Shown here: piece after piece, positions 6,180 to 52,102 of the stretch | Position numbering within the stretch: position 1 is the first letter of the stretch | How the letters are laid out: every line of letters begins with the position of its first letter | NCBI GenBank assembly: GCA_963790475.1 | Contig: CAWBOS010000013.1 | Location: forward strand, 449,730-513,729 | Direction: 5' to 3' | DNA length: 64,000 nt | Source of the DNA: an uncultured delta proteobacterium | GTDB taxonomy: Bacteria; Desulfobacterota; RBG-13-43-22 | Program-made: the position numbers and the translations under genes | Notes under the pieces: model-generated | Database searches by the model: none | Told to the model about the DNA's origin: nothing | The model's input: only the letters and a program-made list of their open reading frames with translations

Positions 6180-6267
6180 ATAAGCGATAAAACGTTAGGT
6201 GTTTGAAAAGTTCTTGTTCACCGCAAAGCTTGCTATATTTTAGAAAGTAGTTAAGCCGTACAAAAAA

Positions 6268-6340
6268 GGCTATACTCTTTCTTGATTTGAGGTCCAATTT
6301 GCAAGTTGGTTAAACCCAAACCAAGGAAAGGAGTATAGCC
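6268..6340 (+). promoter_or_regulatory. 5' hairpin occluding the transposase ribosome-binding site
   Basis: GGCTATACTC (6268-6277) / GAGTATAGCC (6331-6340) perfect inverted repeat directly before ATG. Confidence 0.65.
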
Positions 6341-7600
6341 ATGAATAAGATTGAAACAAAAAAACTTAAGAAGGTCAATGAAAAAACCCTTATCGGTACC
6401 GTGGACATAGGCAAAACGACCAATATGGGATATGGCCGCTGTCCAGACCGGACGGAAATCAAACCTTTTGAGTTTTTCAATAATGATCAAGGATTTACGA
6501 AATTTTGGAATCGGATGGTTGAGGCCAAAGAGGCCAATCACTTGGAAGAAATCGTGGTTGGTTTTGAATCCACCGGGTCTTATGGAGAACCCTTGCAACA
6601 TTTTCTGATGAAACGGCCGGTGACACTGGTTCAGGTTAATCCTATGCATACGAAGAAGTTGAAGGAAGTCCAGGGTAACTCGCCCAATAAGACGGATAGG
6701 AAAGATCCCAAAGTCATTGCGGATATTATTGAGCTGGGTCATGCCCTTACCGTGGTCATTCCCGAAGGCGCGGCAGCTGAACTTCGCCGACTGACCCATG
6801 CCAGGGAGAGAGCCATACGAAGACGAACGGGCCTTTTGAACCAGATTCAGGATTTGGTCTTTATTGTCTTCCCCGAGTTTCTGCAAGTGATGAAGAATAT
6901 TAAAACCCGCAGTGCCCAATATCTGTTGCGGCATTATCCGTGCCCGGAAGATATTATCCAATGTGGTCTTGGGACCTTGAGGGCCACGCTGAGACGGGTT
7001 AGCCGAGGGAAGCTGGATAAAGAGCGAGCCCCGGCCCTTTATGCGGCCGCTGGCCATTCCGTAGGTCTTCAAGAAGGCCGCAAGGCGATTCTTTTTGAGA
7101 TACGAGAACTTCTTTCTGAGATTGAATCTTCTGACCAGTTTATTGAGAAGGCGGAACAGGAGATGGCGGCCCTTCTTCCCGAGATCCCCTATAGTCATTC
7201 GATTCTGTCCTTGAAAGGGATAGGAGAGGTTACCACCGCCGGACTGATTGGAGAAGTCGGGGATTTTCGTAAATTTCATACGCTGGCTGAAGTCCTGAAG
7301 TTGGCCGGACTGAACCTCTTTGAAATCAGTTCTGGAAGGCACCAAGGGAATCGTCATATATCCAAAAGAGGCCGGTCGCTTCTTAGGAAAATCCTCTTTT
7401 TTGCCGCTATCAATACGGTTCGAAAAGGGGGAGTGATGCATACGGCCTATCAAAGGCATCTGGATCAAGGAATGCCCAAGATCAAGGCCCTGGTAGCCAT
7501 TGCCCGGAAGCTTCTCGGTGTTATTTTTGCCTTGGTGCGTGATCATAACGAATATATGGAAAATTATTCAAAAGGAGCAACGTTAAAACTGGCTGCTTAG
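6341..7600 (+). CDS. IS110-family transposase/recombinase
   Basis: DEDD residues (VDIGK, FEST, KTDRKD), SSG serine loop, ISKRG, ARKL. Confidence 0.95.
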   Translation: MNKIETKKLKKVNEKTLIGTVDIGKTTNMGYGRCPDRTEIKPFEFFNNDQGFTKFWNRMVEAKEANHLEEIVVGFESTGSYGEPLQHFLMKRPVTLVQVNPMHTKKLKEVQGNSPNKTDRKDPKVIADIIELGHALTVVIPEGAAAELRRLTHARERAIRRRTGLLNQIQDLVFIVFPEFLQVMKNIKTRSAQYLLRHYPCPEDIIQCGLGTLRATLRRVSRGKLDKERAPALYAAAGHSVGLQEGRKAILFEIRELLSEIESSDQFIEKAEQEMAALLPEIPYSHSILSLKGIGEVTTAGLIGEVGDFRKFHTLAEVLKLAGLNLFEISSGRHQGNRHISKRGRSLLRKILFFAAINTVRKGGVMHTAYQRHLDQGMPKIKALVAIARKLLGVIFALVRDHNEYMENYSKGATLKLAA

Positions 7601-7604
7601 ACCT

Positions 7605-7774
7605 TCTTAGCGTGTAAGCGGAGAGATTATCGTTTGCGGCATCTAAGGCGACTAAGTCGACCTTCTCGCAGAGCTTAAATAACTCTCCGCTTGCACCTTA
7701 ACCCCAATAAAGCAAGGTTAGAGCTCTGTTGAGACTCTCAAATTACCAGAGTTGGGCAAGGTGTCACTCTAAGA
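7605..7774 (+). ncRNA. predicted bridge/seek RNA of IS110 element 1
   Basis: Two stem-enclosed loops: TTTGCG/CGCAGAG match the target, AGCAAG/ACCAG match the donor junction. Confidence 0.7.
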
Positions 7775-7828
7775 TAGTTACCAGTTTGTTTAATAATATT
7801 TAAAAAACTCTTGACAACAATAAACCAG

Positions 7829-8007
7829 ACGCAAAGGACGCAGAGAGAATCATTTTTATTCAATCCCGTGAGAGGCGGGATTGAATAAACCTGCTCTGGC
7901 CTCCGGCAAATAAAAACCCGGAGGGTTGTGAAGCTTTTCGATTATCCCGCCAAGGCCAAGGCGGGAAATCGAAGTATTTCTTTGCGCTCTTTGCGCCTTT
8001 GCGGTGA
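7829..8007. repeat. ~185-bp palindromic MITE-like repeat (CACCGCAAAG...CTTTGCGGTG), left tip at 6218-6228, split by IS110
   Basis: Close similarity to 51864-52048; internal hairpins. Confidence 0.85.
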
Positions 8008-8084
8008 AATCAGTCATTTCAAAAAGCTAAATTGATACGATAGCCGGAAATTCCGAAATCAGAAATAGATAGGGGATTTTTATT

Positions 8085-29043: not shown

Positions 29044-29399
29044 TGGTATTACTCCGGTAAATAAAGTCTTAGATAAGTTCGGATCGAAACTTTGAGAATT
29101 TTAATTTCGTGATTACGTTGTTACTGATAATCTCCTAATGTGTCGTCACCCCTTCTATGTTGAAAAGCAAGTCTTTTTTATTAGAGAATGACTTTTTTTT
29201 GGTTTTTAAGGTTTTTAAGATAAACCTCTTCACGGACGGCTGCCTGGATGATCTCCTGAGGAGGCTGAACTACCTGCGATAGAAACAGGCGACCATCCGT
29301 GAAGAGGTCACTTTTGGCAATTCCTTTTTAACCGCAGGAGATAGCCAAGGAAGCCGATCCGTCGATTAATTGATACCAAACTTGAGGGCTGGACCAATC

Positions 29400-29546
29400 T
29401 TTCAAATCAACCTTCTATCAGCAGACATATCTTGATGGATCGCTGCAGAATCTTGATAATGTTAAAATCGTGGGCACGGAGTCTAGTGAAGAGCAGGCAT
29501 CATCTGCCGATGAGCTGCAGGGGTGACGGACCGTTTATGCCCACGA
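29400..29546 (-). ncRNA. predicted bridge/seek RNA of IS110 element 2 (boundaries approximate)
   Basis: Stem 29468-29476/29538-29546 encloses 10/10 and 7/8 matches to target halves; CTTCTAT (29412-29418) matches donor end. Confidence 0.72.
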
Positions 29547-29582
29547 GCCGATTTATCGGATTGGAAGCACCTCTTCGGGTTA

Positions 29583-30653
29583 TTATTGAACTACACCAGG
29601 CACATATTCCACCTGGTTCTTTAACACATAACGAATGCGGTTGAGCAGTTTCCGGGCGATCTTGATAATGGCCCTGGTTTTCTTCATCCGTTGGCAATAT
29701 TCATTAAAGGCCAAAAGCAGGACCGGGTCCTTGCGGGCCGCCACCCAGGCGGCTTCGATGAGCAAAGCCCTTAATTGGGGGTTTCGCCGGTGGGTTAAGT
29801 TTTTTATATGTTCGGTCTCCCCACTGGATTCGACATCGGGGATTAATCCGACATAACTGGCCAACTTGTCGAGGGAGACAAAGCGGGCCAACTCACCCAG
29901 CTCGGTCAGGAAAATCATGGCCGCCAGGGTACTGATCCCCGGGATCGTTTTTAACAACCGGACCCTTTCGCGATATTCTGCTTCCCGGGCCAGCAAAATG
30001 ATGGACCGGTTTAAAGAAGCGATGATCCGTTTCAGATGATGGAGTTCGTCTAAGTGGGCCTTGAGGGCCATATCGCCACTGGTCCGCTCCATACGAAGAT
30101 TTTCGAGACAGCCAAGAAATTTTTGAGACCAATGGCGGTCAACAACTTCTTCGGGCAGAGTAATCCCATAGAAGTAAAGGAGCGCCTTAATTTGATTTTT
30201 ACACCGGGTTTGCTTTCTCACCATACTTTGGCGGGTTCGAACCAGACTGCGATCCTCCAGCTTCGGACGGCTCGGGACGTAAATCCCTTTCAGTTCCCCG
30301 CTCCGGAGGCTCCTGCCCAGCTTGCGGCTGTCGGTTCGATCCCGCCTAGTGGTCCGTTCTTTATTGGTCGTCGGGACATCGGCCGGGTTGACCACGATGC
30401 AATTCACCCCTTTTTCCTGAAGCTGATCGTGAGCCCAGAAGCCGCTAAACCCGGCCTCATAGGCCGCCTGATAGCTCGCTCCAGGAAAGTTCTTTCGAAG
30501 ATAATGGACCAGTTTGTCTGCTTCTGGAGGTTGGGTAAAAGTCTTATGCTCGCACTGTCTAGAAAAAATGCTCACGCTCCAACTCTTCTTGTGGACATCC
30601 AGTCCCACGTAAATCGATTGACCCGAAAAATCCAATTTGTTAATCTGTACCAC
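29583..30653 (-). CDS. IS110-family transposase/recombinase
   Basis: GLDVHK, YEAG, RDRTD, ESSG, IARKLL. Confidence 0.95.
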   Translation of the reverse strand: MVQINKLDFSGQSIYVGLDVHKKSWSVSIFSRQCEHKTFTQPPEADKLVHYLRKNFPGASYQAAYEAGFSGFWAHDQLQEKGVNCIVVNPADVPTTNKERTTRRDRTDSRKLGRSLRSGELKGIYVPSRPKLEDRSLVRTRQSMVRKQTRCKNQIKALLYFYGITLPEEVVDRHWSQKFLGCLENLRMERTSGDMALKAHLDELHHLKRIIASLNRSIILLAREAEYRERVRLLKTIPGISTLAAMIFLTELGELARFVSLDKLASYVGLIPDVESSGETEHIKNLTHRRNPQLRALLIEAAWVAARKDPVLLLAFNEYCQRMKKTRAIIKIARKLLNRIRYVLKNQVEYVPGVVQ

Positions 30654-30720
30654 GGCAAGTCTCCTTTCGGTTTGTTTTTTTACCCTAAAAAAAGTATATC
30701 CGAAAGCTTCGAGACTTGCC
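30654..30720 (-). promoter_or_regulatory. 5' hairpin occluding transposase RBS
   Basis: GGCAAGTCTC (30654-30663) / GAGACTTGCC (30711-30720) plus CTTTCGG/CCGAAAG. Confidence 0.65.
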
Positions 30721-30741
30721 TTTCTTTTTCAATCATAAGGT

Positions 30742-30810
30742 CTGGTGAAAACCGGGGTCCAGGATTATATCTAATTGACAATTCTGGATTCCGACTTTCG
30801 TCAGAATGAC
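30742..30810. repeat. REP-like palindrome pair, target of IS110 element 2 (left tip at 29145-29153)
   Basis: ..ggtgaaaaccggggtccag ... ctggattccgactttcgtcagaatgac. Confidence 0.75.
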
Positions 30811-30981
30811 AAAAATAGGCTTCCCATGATTTCTTTCCCTAGATCATCCTTGATGGATTCTCGTTATTTTAAGAATTACAATTTTATATATTTTACTGCC
30901 ATAGTAATAGTGGGTGTGCCCCTGCGAATTGTACACCAGAGCATCATTAGCCTTATCGGTTTCGATTTAAAATAAACAGTC

Positions 30982-51793: not shown

Positions 51794-51863
51794 GTTTCTC
51801 CTCCTTTTTTTTTTAGAATAAGAAAATTAGTAACACTTTAGCTGTTTGAAAAGAAATATTTTC

Positions 51864-52048
51864 TCACCGCAAAGACGCAAAGGACGCAGAGAGAATCATT
51901 TTTGTTCAATCCCATGAGAGGCGGGATTGAACAACCCGCTCTGGCCTTCGGCCAAATAATTCCCCGGAGGGTAGCGAAGCTATGTGTTTGCCGGCCTCTG
52001 ACGGCAAACACAATTATTCTCTTAGCGCTCTTTGCGCCTTTGCGGTGA
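51864..52048. repeat. intact ~185-bp MITE-like palindromic repeat
   Basis: TCACCGCAAAGACGCAAAG ... CTTTGCGCCTTTGCGGTGA termini, internal hairpins. Confidence 0.88.
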
Positions 52049-52102
52049 AAACAGTTTTTTTCAAAAAACTAAACTGAGACAAAAATTATAATTATTCCCG
52101 CT

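Follow-up and report, generated by a model that had tools for sequence, protein, structure and literature searches.

The window considered here is a stretch of DNA 64,000 nucleotides in length, and positions 6229-7828 on its + strand are very probably an active or recently active IS110-family element with bridge RNA (seekRNA) guidance. The sequence supports an RNA encoded downstream of the transposase gene, whose two loops correspond in sequence to the target and to the ends of the element itself. The original prediction had proposed an RNA-guided insertion sequence of just this type, and the proposal is borne out by covariation in relatives, both within the stems of the RNA and between its guides and the flanks.

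The insertion sequence and its target sites

The element is a 1600-bp insertion sequence, counted with one copy of the AG core, which is present at both borders (6227-6228 and 7827-7828). The genome has ten copies, nine identical and one with a single change (7235 A>G). The copies lie at ten distinct loci and the surrounding repeat sequences are unlike each other, so that the insertions are independent. The junctions are alike in all ten, and orientation and position are constant for the copies located in the repeat. The core is common to the left flank and the right end, and there is no duplication beyond it, the matching empty site (51865-51882) being exact. The anatomy, copy number and flanks of the element are established here. 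Boundaries and copy number were also determined for a second element in the window (element 2, 29142-30822, - strand).

The transposase, or recombinase, is encoded at 6341-7600 (+ strand) and has 419 amino acids. It possesses the N-terminal DEDD RuvC-like domain (PF01548, 2.5e-24) and the C-terminal Transposase_20 domain with a catalytic serine (PF02371, 5.7e-20) that are characteristic of the IS110 family, and it scores 216 bits against the NCBIfam model NF033542 ("IS110 family RNA-guided transposase"), where the cut-off is 140. Residues D22, E76, D119, D122 and S341, the last in an SKRG motif, are invariant across six relatives and align to the IS621 motifs (8wt6); the naming of the DEDD and serine positions as catalytic is taken from the published IS621 account. 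The C-terminal half can also be aligned with the structures of IS621 and ISCro4, where the serine of the SKxG motif is retained, and the relationship to IS621 is a distant one (E = 4e-8, over the C-terminal half only). Among 8000 scored candidates, at least 3952 proteins fall at E <= 1e-30, and these represent a large environmental clade. The closest-relative proteins are named only "transposase" or "IS110 family transposase", and no ISfinder name appears among them.

Insertion is at the AG core within CACCGCAAAG|ACGCAAAG. The left target CACCGCAAAG occupies 6219-6228, with the core at 6227-6228, and the right target ACGCAAAG occupies 7829-7836. Both belong to a host repeat of approximately 250 bp, for which a consensus was built on 25 full copies with flanks. 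The outer part of the interrupted copy lies to the left of the insertion (6187-6228, the outer boundary being approximate) and the remainder to the right (7829-8038); its other arm, at 7989-8006 on the - strand, reads CACCGCAAAG-G-CGCAAAG and is empty. The element was originally placed in a "MITE terminus". The host repeat is confirmed, with "MITE" serving as a label only, but the terminal position is not: the repeat runs approximately 40 nt past CACCGC, and the element therefore falls within the inverted terminal region instead of at the extremity of the repeat. The same prediction had assigned insertion to the AG core and an unoccupied target to the vicinity of 51864, and a pattern search with a chance expectation of 0.01 does recover an uninterrupted CACCGCAAAGACGCAAAG at 51865-51882 (+ strand). 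This permissive site, which has A after the core, lies in an intact repeat copy (approximately 51830-52079) whose other arm (52030-52047, - strand) has G at that position, and it satisfies every requirement of the ten occupied sites, including the A.

All ten sets of flanks fit YACCRCRRAG|ACGCARAG, and the differences between flanks and guides (vide infra) are G.T or U.G wobbles, save one A.C. Nine of the ten copies are in the host repeat. The tenth (G000:C6:14564-16165) interrupts an ATPase-like reading frame at an identical target sequence and has only this 17-nt target in common with the repeat sites. The proposal that the repeat acts as a "safe harbour" is thus upheld as a main tendency and not as an exclusive one. 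An insertion outside the repeat had been named in advance as evidence against RNA guidance; the single one among the ten, at a site with the shared target, speaks rather for targeting by sequence than for recognition of the repeat itself.

The ends and the predicted bridge RNA

The left end (6229-6239, + strand), which is conserved in relatives, begins with CTTGCT (6229-6234), the right donor half-site for the donor loop, and it contains a -10 box, TATATT (6234-6239), that acquires a -35 partner only once the ends are joined. The right end (7811-7828, + strand) contains a -35 box, TTGACA (7811-7816), followed by AATAAACCAG (7819-7828), the left donor half-site plus core. Joining the right end to the left end gives TTGACA-N17-TATATT. 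The right end is conserved and the -35/-10 spacing kept in 45 of the 55 distinct relatives listed, and in the other 10 the pattern found no right end. Excision would form a circle with the junction ..AATAAACC-AG-CTTGCTATATT.., and this junction would assemble the promoter. Circle formation is a predicted step for the element. Among assembled contigs from 20 sequencing runs, which are blind to rare junctions, none bridges the element or connects its right end with its left. Loose contig ends at 7825-7830 were considered as junction evidence and rejected, as they belong to other repeat copies. No end-to-end inverted repeats of 6 nt or more exist between the first and last 60 nt of the element, where the longest shared inverted word is 5 nt. 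In the 5' UTR, 6268-6280 and 6328-6340 form a hairpin (13 nt, 92% complementary) in which the AAGGAG ribosome-binding site, situated immediately upstream of the start codon (ATG, 6341), is paired. The hairpin sequence is also present in two relatives (L029 and L030), and it may have a function involving AAGGAG.

The non-coding region at the 3' end is 228 nt long, as against 112 nt at the 5' end. A fold of this region had been suggested as a check on the prediction; for the single sequence it gives z = -4.96 and two modules, each made up of a stem, an internal loop and a hairpin. These modules form a predicted bridge RNA of approximately 150 nt just downstream of the transposase gene (approximately 7617-7764, + strand). 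The target-binding module (7617-7691) has a stem of 7617-7630 with 7679-7691 and a hairpin at 7645-7664; the stem is thus as predicted, but the comparative consensus is shorter than the 7612-7630/7679-7696 first given. Its 5' strand is TTTGCG (7633-7638), complementary to the right target, and its 3' loop strand, CGCAGAG (7667-7673), reads as the sense strand of the left target and AG core. The donor-binding module (7693-7764) has stems of 7693-7697 with 7760-7764 and of 7702-7706 with 7752-7756 (CCCAA/TTGGG), and a hairpin at 7721-7737. Its 5' strand AGCAAG (7711-7716) is complementary to CTTGCT of the left end, with which it would pair, and its 3' strand ACCAG (7745-7749), the sense of the right end and core, would pair there. 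All four loop motifs and the CCCAA/TTGGG stem were thus found where they had been predicted. The match to the left target needs qualification, as the CGCAGAG guide meets CGCAAAG through a G.T wobble and has an exact CGCAGAG in three of the ten copies.

Covariation supports a further IS110-family trait, a long non-coding end encoding a two-loop RNA complementary to target and donor ends. The consensus over 53 distinct relatives comprises 36 base pairs, and 25 of these show compensatory changes. Of all cells, 97.7% pair; none of 500 shuffles reaches the observed values, and slid controls give 33-49%. An Rfam search of the RNA region returned nothing near the gathering score, and no curated family covers this RNA. 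In the genome, nhmmer detected no orphan copies, all 10 hits being within the 10 copies of the insertion sequence. The + strand of the integrated copy has no sigma-70-like promoter, and promoter and terminator counts are no higher than in shuffles. One metatranscriptome contig covers 7623-7846 with 5 differences; DNA carry-over is possible, and the missing transposase-gene coverage in that run is uninformative. The RNA is presumably produced and bound by the recombinase.

The guides were compared with the flanks in relatives by means of a looser loop pattern, since a strict one missed approximately 30 of 80 loci. False matches of the looser pattern (L034, L039, L041, L043, L053, L077 and L115) were excluded by requiring a 3' guide ending in AG, and 78 of 85 rows were kept. 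Across 28 distinct guides, 4.39 of the 5 variable positions in the 3' target guide are identical in the left flank, and shuffled pairings give 1.62 +/- 0.21, with a maximum of 2.39 over 10,000 permutations; across 39 guides, the longest Watson-Crick run between the 5' target guide and the right flank is 5.77 versus 3.16 +/- 0.16. No permutation attains the observed agreement of guides and flanks. The relatives share ancestry, and these permutation figures, like the Fisher values below, overstate independence. Rare end variants likewise covary with the donor loop: CGTGCT occurs with AGCACG (L031 and L111), ACTAG with ACTAG (L086), and ACAAG with ACAAG (L033, L034, L039, L041 and L043). A donor-loop mismatch to the relative's own left end occurs in two cases (L073 and L030/L063). 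Both the structure and the guide-to-flank covariation are established here.

The target is a direct repeat of CGCAAAG, and the opposite guide assignment can therefore also be written, so that CCGCAAA of the left target would be paired by TTTGCGG, and CGCAAAG of the right target by CGCAGAG. It even gains a nucleotide, as TTTGCGG (7633-7639) is a 7-nt complement of CCGCAAA and only 6 nt are matched on the right. This reversal is nevertheless highly improbable, given that in relatives without internally repeated targets the 3' strand is always the left flank plus AG (L050 GGGGGAG, L088 ATGCGGAG, L064 GCCGCAG) and the 5' strand complements the right flank (e.g., L082, L065 and L093). We consider it every bit as improbable that the protein alone reads the repeat, as sequence or as hairpin, in which case the conserved 3' region would do no more than bind the transposase, terminate transcription or stabilise the mRNA, and its loops would match by coincidence. 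The concentration of nine of ten copies within one repeat family would agree with such a reading, and the RNA here is known from sequence, not from direct observation. However, the loop strands covary with the flanks in 28-39 distinct lineages and the stems stay constant, the coding-region insertion shares nothing but the 17-nt target, and an RNA is experimentally required in relatives of the IS110 family (PMC11208160, PMC11187229).

The constant orientation and position within the repeat could also arise if copies spread as a composite of repeat and insertion sequence, via the repeat's own transposase and not by RNA-guided insertion into existing repeats. This almost certainly did not happen: the copies are identical or one base apart, but the surrounding repeats show many differences, some falling in the 10-nt left target and some in the 30 nt on the right, and one copy has no repeat at all. 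Under RNA guidance, insertion would proceed without duplication at ..CGCARAG|ACGCARAG.., a site found mainly in the inverted terminal region of the approximately 250-bp repeat.

The base after the core

The base directly after the core is A at all ten insertions, and the 50 guide-compatible sites with C, G or T at this position are all empty. By this base, the empty guide-compatible sites of the genome are divided into 6 with A, 25 with C, 17 with G and 8 with T, and the occupied sites comprise 9 with A plus 1 with a left-target mismatch (Fisher 1.6e-7 versus the empty sites). Among 48 distinct lineages of relatives, 44 have a base after ACCAG that matches the one following the core (A/A 8, G/G 35, T/T 1; Fisher 3.7e-7), and the exceptions are L059 and L081 (A vs G), L051 (G vs A), L053 (G vs T) and L093 (T vs G). 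For the second handshake base and the +2 position, the relatives' rows, read by eye, have no consistent relation. It is established here that the handshake base and the +1 position are associated.

A handshake-guide rule has been described for IS621, and by analogy A7750, the base that follows ACCAG, is the proposed handshake guide reading the target base after the core. After strand exchange, A7750 would pair with the target position just after the core, and under the IS621 rule this pairing would limit insertion to repeat copies with A there. C7674/U7675, complementary to the donor, are the corresponding proposed handshake guide in the target module, on the basis of the published account. 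Within the 5' target strand, G7639 mismatches the A at +1, and the 25 empty C-type sites would offer it a better partner; if the distantly related IS621 protein is a fair analogue, the handshake mechanism may account for this mismatch as well. The chances appear evenly balanced that A7750 alone, although outside the guides proper, decides which copies can be occupied among 65 near-identical guide-compatible sites, with the conserved C after the target-loop guide vetoing the C-type sites.

The strict A may instead be read by the protein through a PAM-like contact, or may reflect a tolerated G.A mismatch. Such an explanation would suit a recombinase very different from that of IS621, and also the observation that a purine invariably follows the core in 39 distinct relatives (G 29, A 10), with a looser filter adding two T and no C among 48 lineages. 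We consider it rather unlikely, as a fixed protein contact would not be expected to follow the base after ACCAG in 44 of 48 lineages, and the missing C at +1 is also expected from the conserved C after the target-loop guide under the published rule that cognate pairing locks the complex. If A7750 does have the proposed role, the genome is a natural experiment showing that the IS621 handshake rule extends to target choice in a distant clade whose layout is inverted, and that clade is specialised, across several phyla, on repeats ending in arrays of 8-nt nCGCAAAG-like units.

Comparison with known bridge RNA systems

RNA-guided IS110/IS1111 elements that target REP sequences and transposon inverted repeats have already been published (PMC11208160, PMC11187229). 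Guidance by an RNA that fits both target and ends was described in 2024, and the element exemplifies it well without being a new kind of system. It does provide a well-resolved natural bridge RNA system, with both loops and both ends defined, a long recombinase (approximately 420 amino acids), an RNA downstream of the gene, and a core that reads CT on the strand opposite transcription. For the engineering of bridge recombinases, it is a distant orthologue with clear guide rules and with in-genome evidence that the opposite loop reads the position beside the core. To genome biology, it adds a further insertion sequence that lands mostly, but not always, in dispersed repeats.

The element resembles IS621 (Durrant et al. 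2024, PMC11208160; Hiraizumi et al. 2024, PMC11208158) in having a recombinase with DEDD and Tnp domains, an RNA, predicted for the element, whose target-binding loop precedes the donor-binding loop, a dinucleotide core (AG here, reading CT on the opposite strand, as in IS621), a promoter at the circle junction, likewise predicted for the element, host repeats (REP in the case of IS621) as natural targets, and a handshake base that covaries with the target position adjoining the core. The differences are that the RNA is downstream of the gene in the element and upstream in IS621, that with respect to core polarity the gene and the RNA run the opposite way, and that the protein has 419 amino acids versus the 328 residues of the IS621 chain (8wt6), with E = 4e-8 over the C-terminal half. 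When the element is read on the opposite strand, the layout is equal to that of IS621.

With the IS1111 group and its seekRNAs (ISEc11, ISPa11 and ISKpn4; Siddiquee et al. 2024, PMC11187229), the element shares the position of its long non-coding region, downstream of tnp, a promoter at the junction (predicted for the element), duplication-free insertion, and a top-strand match 5' of the bottom-strand match, so that the "right then left" order of its guides is the published seekRNA order. However, it lacks subterminal inverted repeats of 6 nt or more, which measure 7-17 bp in IS1111, and its 419-amino-acid transposase is, by size, not of the compact 330-350-amino-acid type. The element better fits the IS110 type with a 3' non-coding region, which is mentioned but untested in PMC11187229, and the trees and target lists of that paper may already include members of its clade. 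Other members of the IS110 family have been published whose targets are dispersed host repeats or the terminal repeats of a different mobile element (including PMC12288879), and these differ from the element in target sequences and hosts. ISPpu9 differs in possessing extra solo copies of its small-RNA gene, whereas the genome of the element holds the RNA within the insertion sequence alone.

The element, its junctions and its host repeat

The IS110-family element occupies 1600 bp of the plus strand (6229-7828). Its single long gene, the transposase gene (6341-7600), encodes 419 aa and leaves non-coding ends of 112 nt at 5' and 228 nt at 3'. The protein contains both IS110-family domains, PF01548 (DEDD_Tnp_IS110, 2.5e-24) and PF02371 (Transposase_20, 5.7e-20), and exceeds the threshold of the NCBI model 'IS110 family RNA-guided transposase' (216 bits; cut-off 140). 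Matches to solved structures, namely the IS621 recombinase (8wt6, E = 4e-8) and ISCro4, are weak and restricted to the C-terminal half. The ESTG, NKTDxxD and SKxG motifs align with these structures, and the aligned residues D22, E76, D119, D122 and S341 are invariant in six relatives.

At the left junction, the flank ...CACCGCAAAG is followed by the element start CTTGCT, and at the right junction the element end ...AATAAACCAG is followed by the flank ACGCAAAG. The only sequence common to flank and end is AG, so that conservative exchange at this core (6227-6228 and 7827-7828) would give CACCGCAA-AG-ACGCAAAG. Exactly this predicted empty site stands at 51865-51882, in agreement with the original reading that excision at the AG core would restore an uninterrupted sequence.

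The window's own genome (6.34 Mb, 20 contigs) contains 10 copies of the IS, nine identical and one with a single-base difference (7235 A>G), with the same junctions throughout. The target lies within a dispersed repeat, for which there are 76 BLAST matches to the 183-bp core (43 of at least 120 bp). Full-length copies, 25 in number, measure 183-198 bp; because conservation extends about 35-40 nt past CACCGC on both sides, the repeat unit is about 250 bp. The element had been placed in a MITE terminus; it does lie inside a long inverted terminal region, but not at its tip, and 'MITE' is used only as a label. Nine of the copies adjoin the repeat at a constant position and orientation. Spread of repeat and IS together as one composite is ruled out, since the repeat sequences around these near-identical copies differ at many positions. 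The tenth copy (G000:C6:14564-16165, in contig C6; locus L008, 1501-3102) has no repeat nearby. Its flanks, ACACAGAG|ACGCAAAG, fit the target, and only the 17-nt target sequence is shared. It splits a P-loop ATPase-like reading frame, the upstream piece of which starts MEKGMKNKYGPWVSGDEFFNREIEIKRL..VAPRRVGKTS, and is an off-repeat insertion that broke a gene.

Relatives at several numbered loci (L057, L073, L078, L099, L102, L104 and L095) lie between the first and second units of comparable arrays, built of 8-nt units such as nCGCAAAG, nCACAGAG and nCGCGAAG (compare 51865-51895 in the window); some of these arrays have an inverted copy shortly downstream. The bins concerned are labelled Planctomycetota (Scalindua), Nitrospirota and Desulfobacterota-type. 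Repeats ending in such arrays seem to be a widespread class, on which this IS clade seems to specialise.

A TTGACA sequence (7811-7816) is found 12 nt from the element's right end and a TATATT sequence (6234-6239) 5 nt from its left end, which would place them 17 nt apart in a predicted promoter at the joined ends. Of the 55 distinct relatives listed, 45 retain both boxes and the distance between them. A search within the integrated copy found no plus-strand promoter. The AAGGAG ribosome-binding site of the transposase gene is paired within a 13-bp hairpin (6268-6280 with 6328-6340), which probably curbs translation of read-through transcripts; its arms are the same in L029 and L030, relatives at 66-67% protein identity. 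One metatranscriptome contig, with five differences, covers 7623-7846, which at most hints weakly at transcription.

A predicted two-module guide RNA

The 3' end of the element alone folds at -67.9 kcal/mol (z = -4.96), but the decisive evidence for the predicted bridge RNA (or seekRNA) is comparative. Relatives were detected in 10 of 401 genomes searched from the same phylum (nine besides the window's own; E <= 1e-40), and a search of one genome per species gave 206 confirmed stretches, from which 80 loci at 56-82% identity were kept. The bins of the relatives carry labels such as Desulfobacterota-type, Nitrospirota and Planctomycetota. In an alignment of 53 distinct 3' regions, two hypervariable patches stand out from a scaffold that is otherwise constant. 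RNAalifold folds the alignment into two modules, each with a stem, an internal loop and a hairpin, corresponding on the plus strand to a target module (7617-7691) and a donor module (7693-7764). Compensatory changes are found in 25 of the 36 consensus pairs; 97.7% of cells are paired, none of 500 shuffles reaches any of five measures, and sliding the pairing partners lowers the paired fraction to 33-49%. An Rfam search of the region matched no family. Four copies of a relative in one Nitrospiraceae bin (L088, L090, L091 and L092) are identical for more than 230 nt past the bridge RNA, and no right end can be recognised in this stretch; this relative may carry extra cargo.

Each of the four guide motifs originally proposed falls in one of the four loop strands. 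As the target is a direct repeat of CGCAAAG, this element alone would allow either guide assignment; comparison with relatives decides for right then left, as had been claimed, with the 5' strand matching the right target and the 3' strand the left target plus core. In the relatives, the first loop carries on its 3' strand the left flank plus AG (GGGGGAG in L050, ATGCGGAG in L088, GCCGCAG in L064, TTTGTAG in L115, GGTCAAG in L105), with 4.39 of 5 variable positions identical (28 distinct guides) versus 1.62 +/- 0.21 in permuted pairings (maximum 2.39 in 10,000). In the 5' strand, the right flank appears as its reverse complement and is followed by a C that pairs with the core G (GCAAGAGT-C versus AG|ACTCTTGC in L082; CCCTCCC-C versus AG|GGGAGGG in L065), and the mean longest Watson-Crick run is 5.77 versus 3.16 +/- 0.16 (39 guides). 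These counts leave out 7 of 85 rows, in which the 3' guide does not end in AG and a loose pattern hit the wrong place. Mismatches between guides and the 10 targets in the window's own genome are G.T or U.G wobbles, bar one A.C. The donor loop and element ends are near-constant in the family (AGCAAG with CTTGCT; ACCAG with ..ACCAG), and rare variants covary: CGTGCT/AGCACG in L031 and L111, ACTAG/ACTAG in L086, and ACAAG/ACAAG in L033, L034, L039, L041 and L043. Two lineages, L073 and L030/L063, break this rule.

Selectivity at the base after the core

The base directly after the core in the target (+1) is A in all 10 insertions. Genome-wide, empty sites fitting both guides (wobble allowed) have A in 6 cases, C in 25, G in 17 and T in 8, while the occupied sites comprise nine with A and one further A site with a left-target mismatch (Fisher 1.6e-7). 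The other repeat arms in the window, at 7989-8006 and 52030-52047, have G at +1 and are empty. The guide base facing +1, G7639, would pair with C, and the guides therefore do not explain this choice.

In IS621, the handshake guides are the two bases after the core-pairing part of the right guides; they must not pair with their own DNA, and promote strand exchange by pairing the core-adjacent position of the other DNA (PMC11208158). We infer a comparable handshake in this element. The donor-loop base would be A7750, directly after ACCAG, which could pair with the T opposite the target +1 A. In the target loop, the handshake bases would be C7674/U7675, which are complementary to the donor and would pair with their own target only if +1 were C, giving a 'locked' state. 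Of 48 distinct lineages, 44 have the same base after ACCAG and at +1 (A/A 8, G/G 35, T/T 1), the exceptions being A/G, G/A, G/T and T/G, once each. Beyond these four, L081 gives one more A/G exception. The Fisher value of 3.7e-7 overstates independence, as the lineages are related. In 73 of 78 rows a C follows the target-loop guide; C at +1 occurs in no lineage.

Other IS110 lineages and known systems

An unrelated second IS110-family element, element 2, lies on the minus strand (29142-30822, 1681 bp), with a gene of 356 aa (30653 to 29583) and, 3' of it, about 440 nt of non-coding sequence. Other copies lie at G000:C1:240085-241768 (98.5% identical), in a palindromic site, GGACTCGCAAAAAGTCGCTGA|..|TTTTTGCGAGTCC, and at C12:171419-173098 (88%). 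At least two more IS110-family lineages are present in the genome (G000:C11:182266, C12:1489043, C15:361365; C12:171636; C12:1483205), including a 401-aa type in three copies and fragments related to element 2.

RNA-guided IS110/IS1111 recombination, the two-loop RNA, the junction promoter, REP and transposon-end targets and the handshake rule are already published (PMC11208160, PMC11187229, PMC11208158). The element is a new, well-defined member of this group, from a large, environmental clade with generic names only, and the most interesting additions are the in-genome +1 selectivity and its covariation with the donor loop.

The guide order equals that published for IS1111-type seekRNAs, in which the top-strand match is 5' of the bottom-strand match (PMC11187229). 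However, the subterminal inverted repeats that define IS1111 are absent from the element, and its protein of 419 aa is far longer than the 330-350 aa of that group (PMC11187229); for these reasons it was filed as IS110-type with a 3' RNA, a configuration noted but left untested in the seekRNA paper (PMC11187229). In the IS621 RNA, the target loop comes before the donor loop, with bottom-strand pairing by the left guide and top-strand pairing by the right guide (PMC11208160). Read on the opposite strand, the core of the element is CT and the layout is that of IS621 (PMC11208160), but gene and RNA have the inverse orientation with respect to the core, and the RNA lies 3' of the gene.
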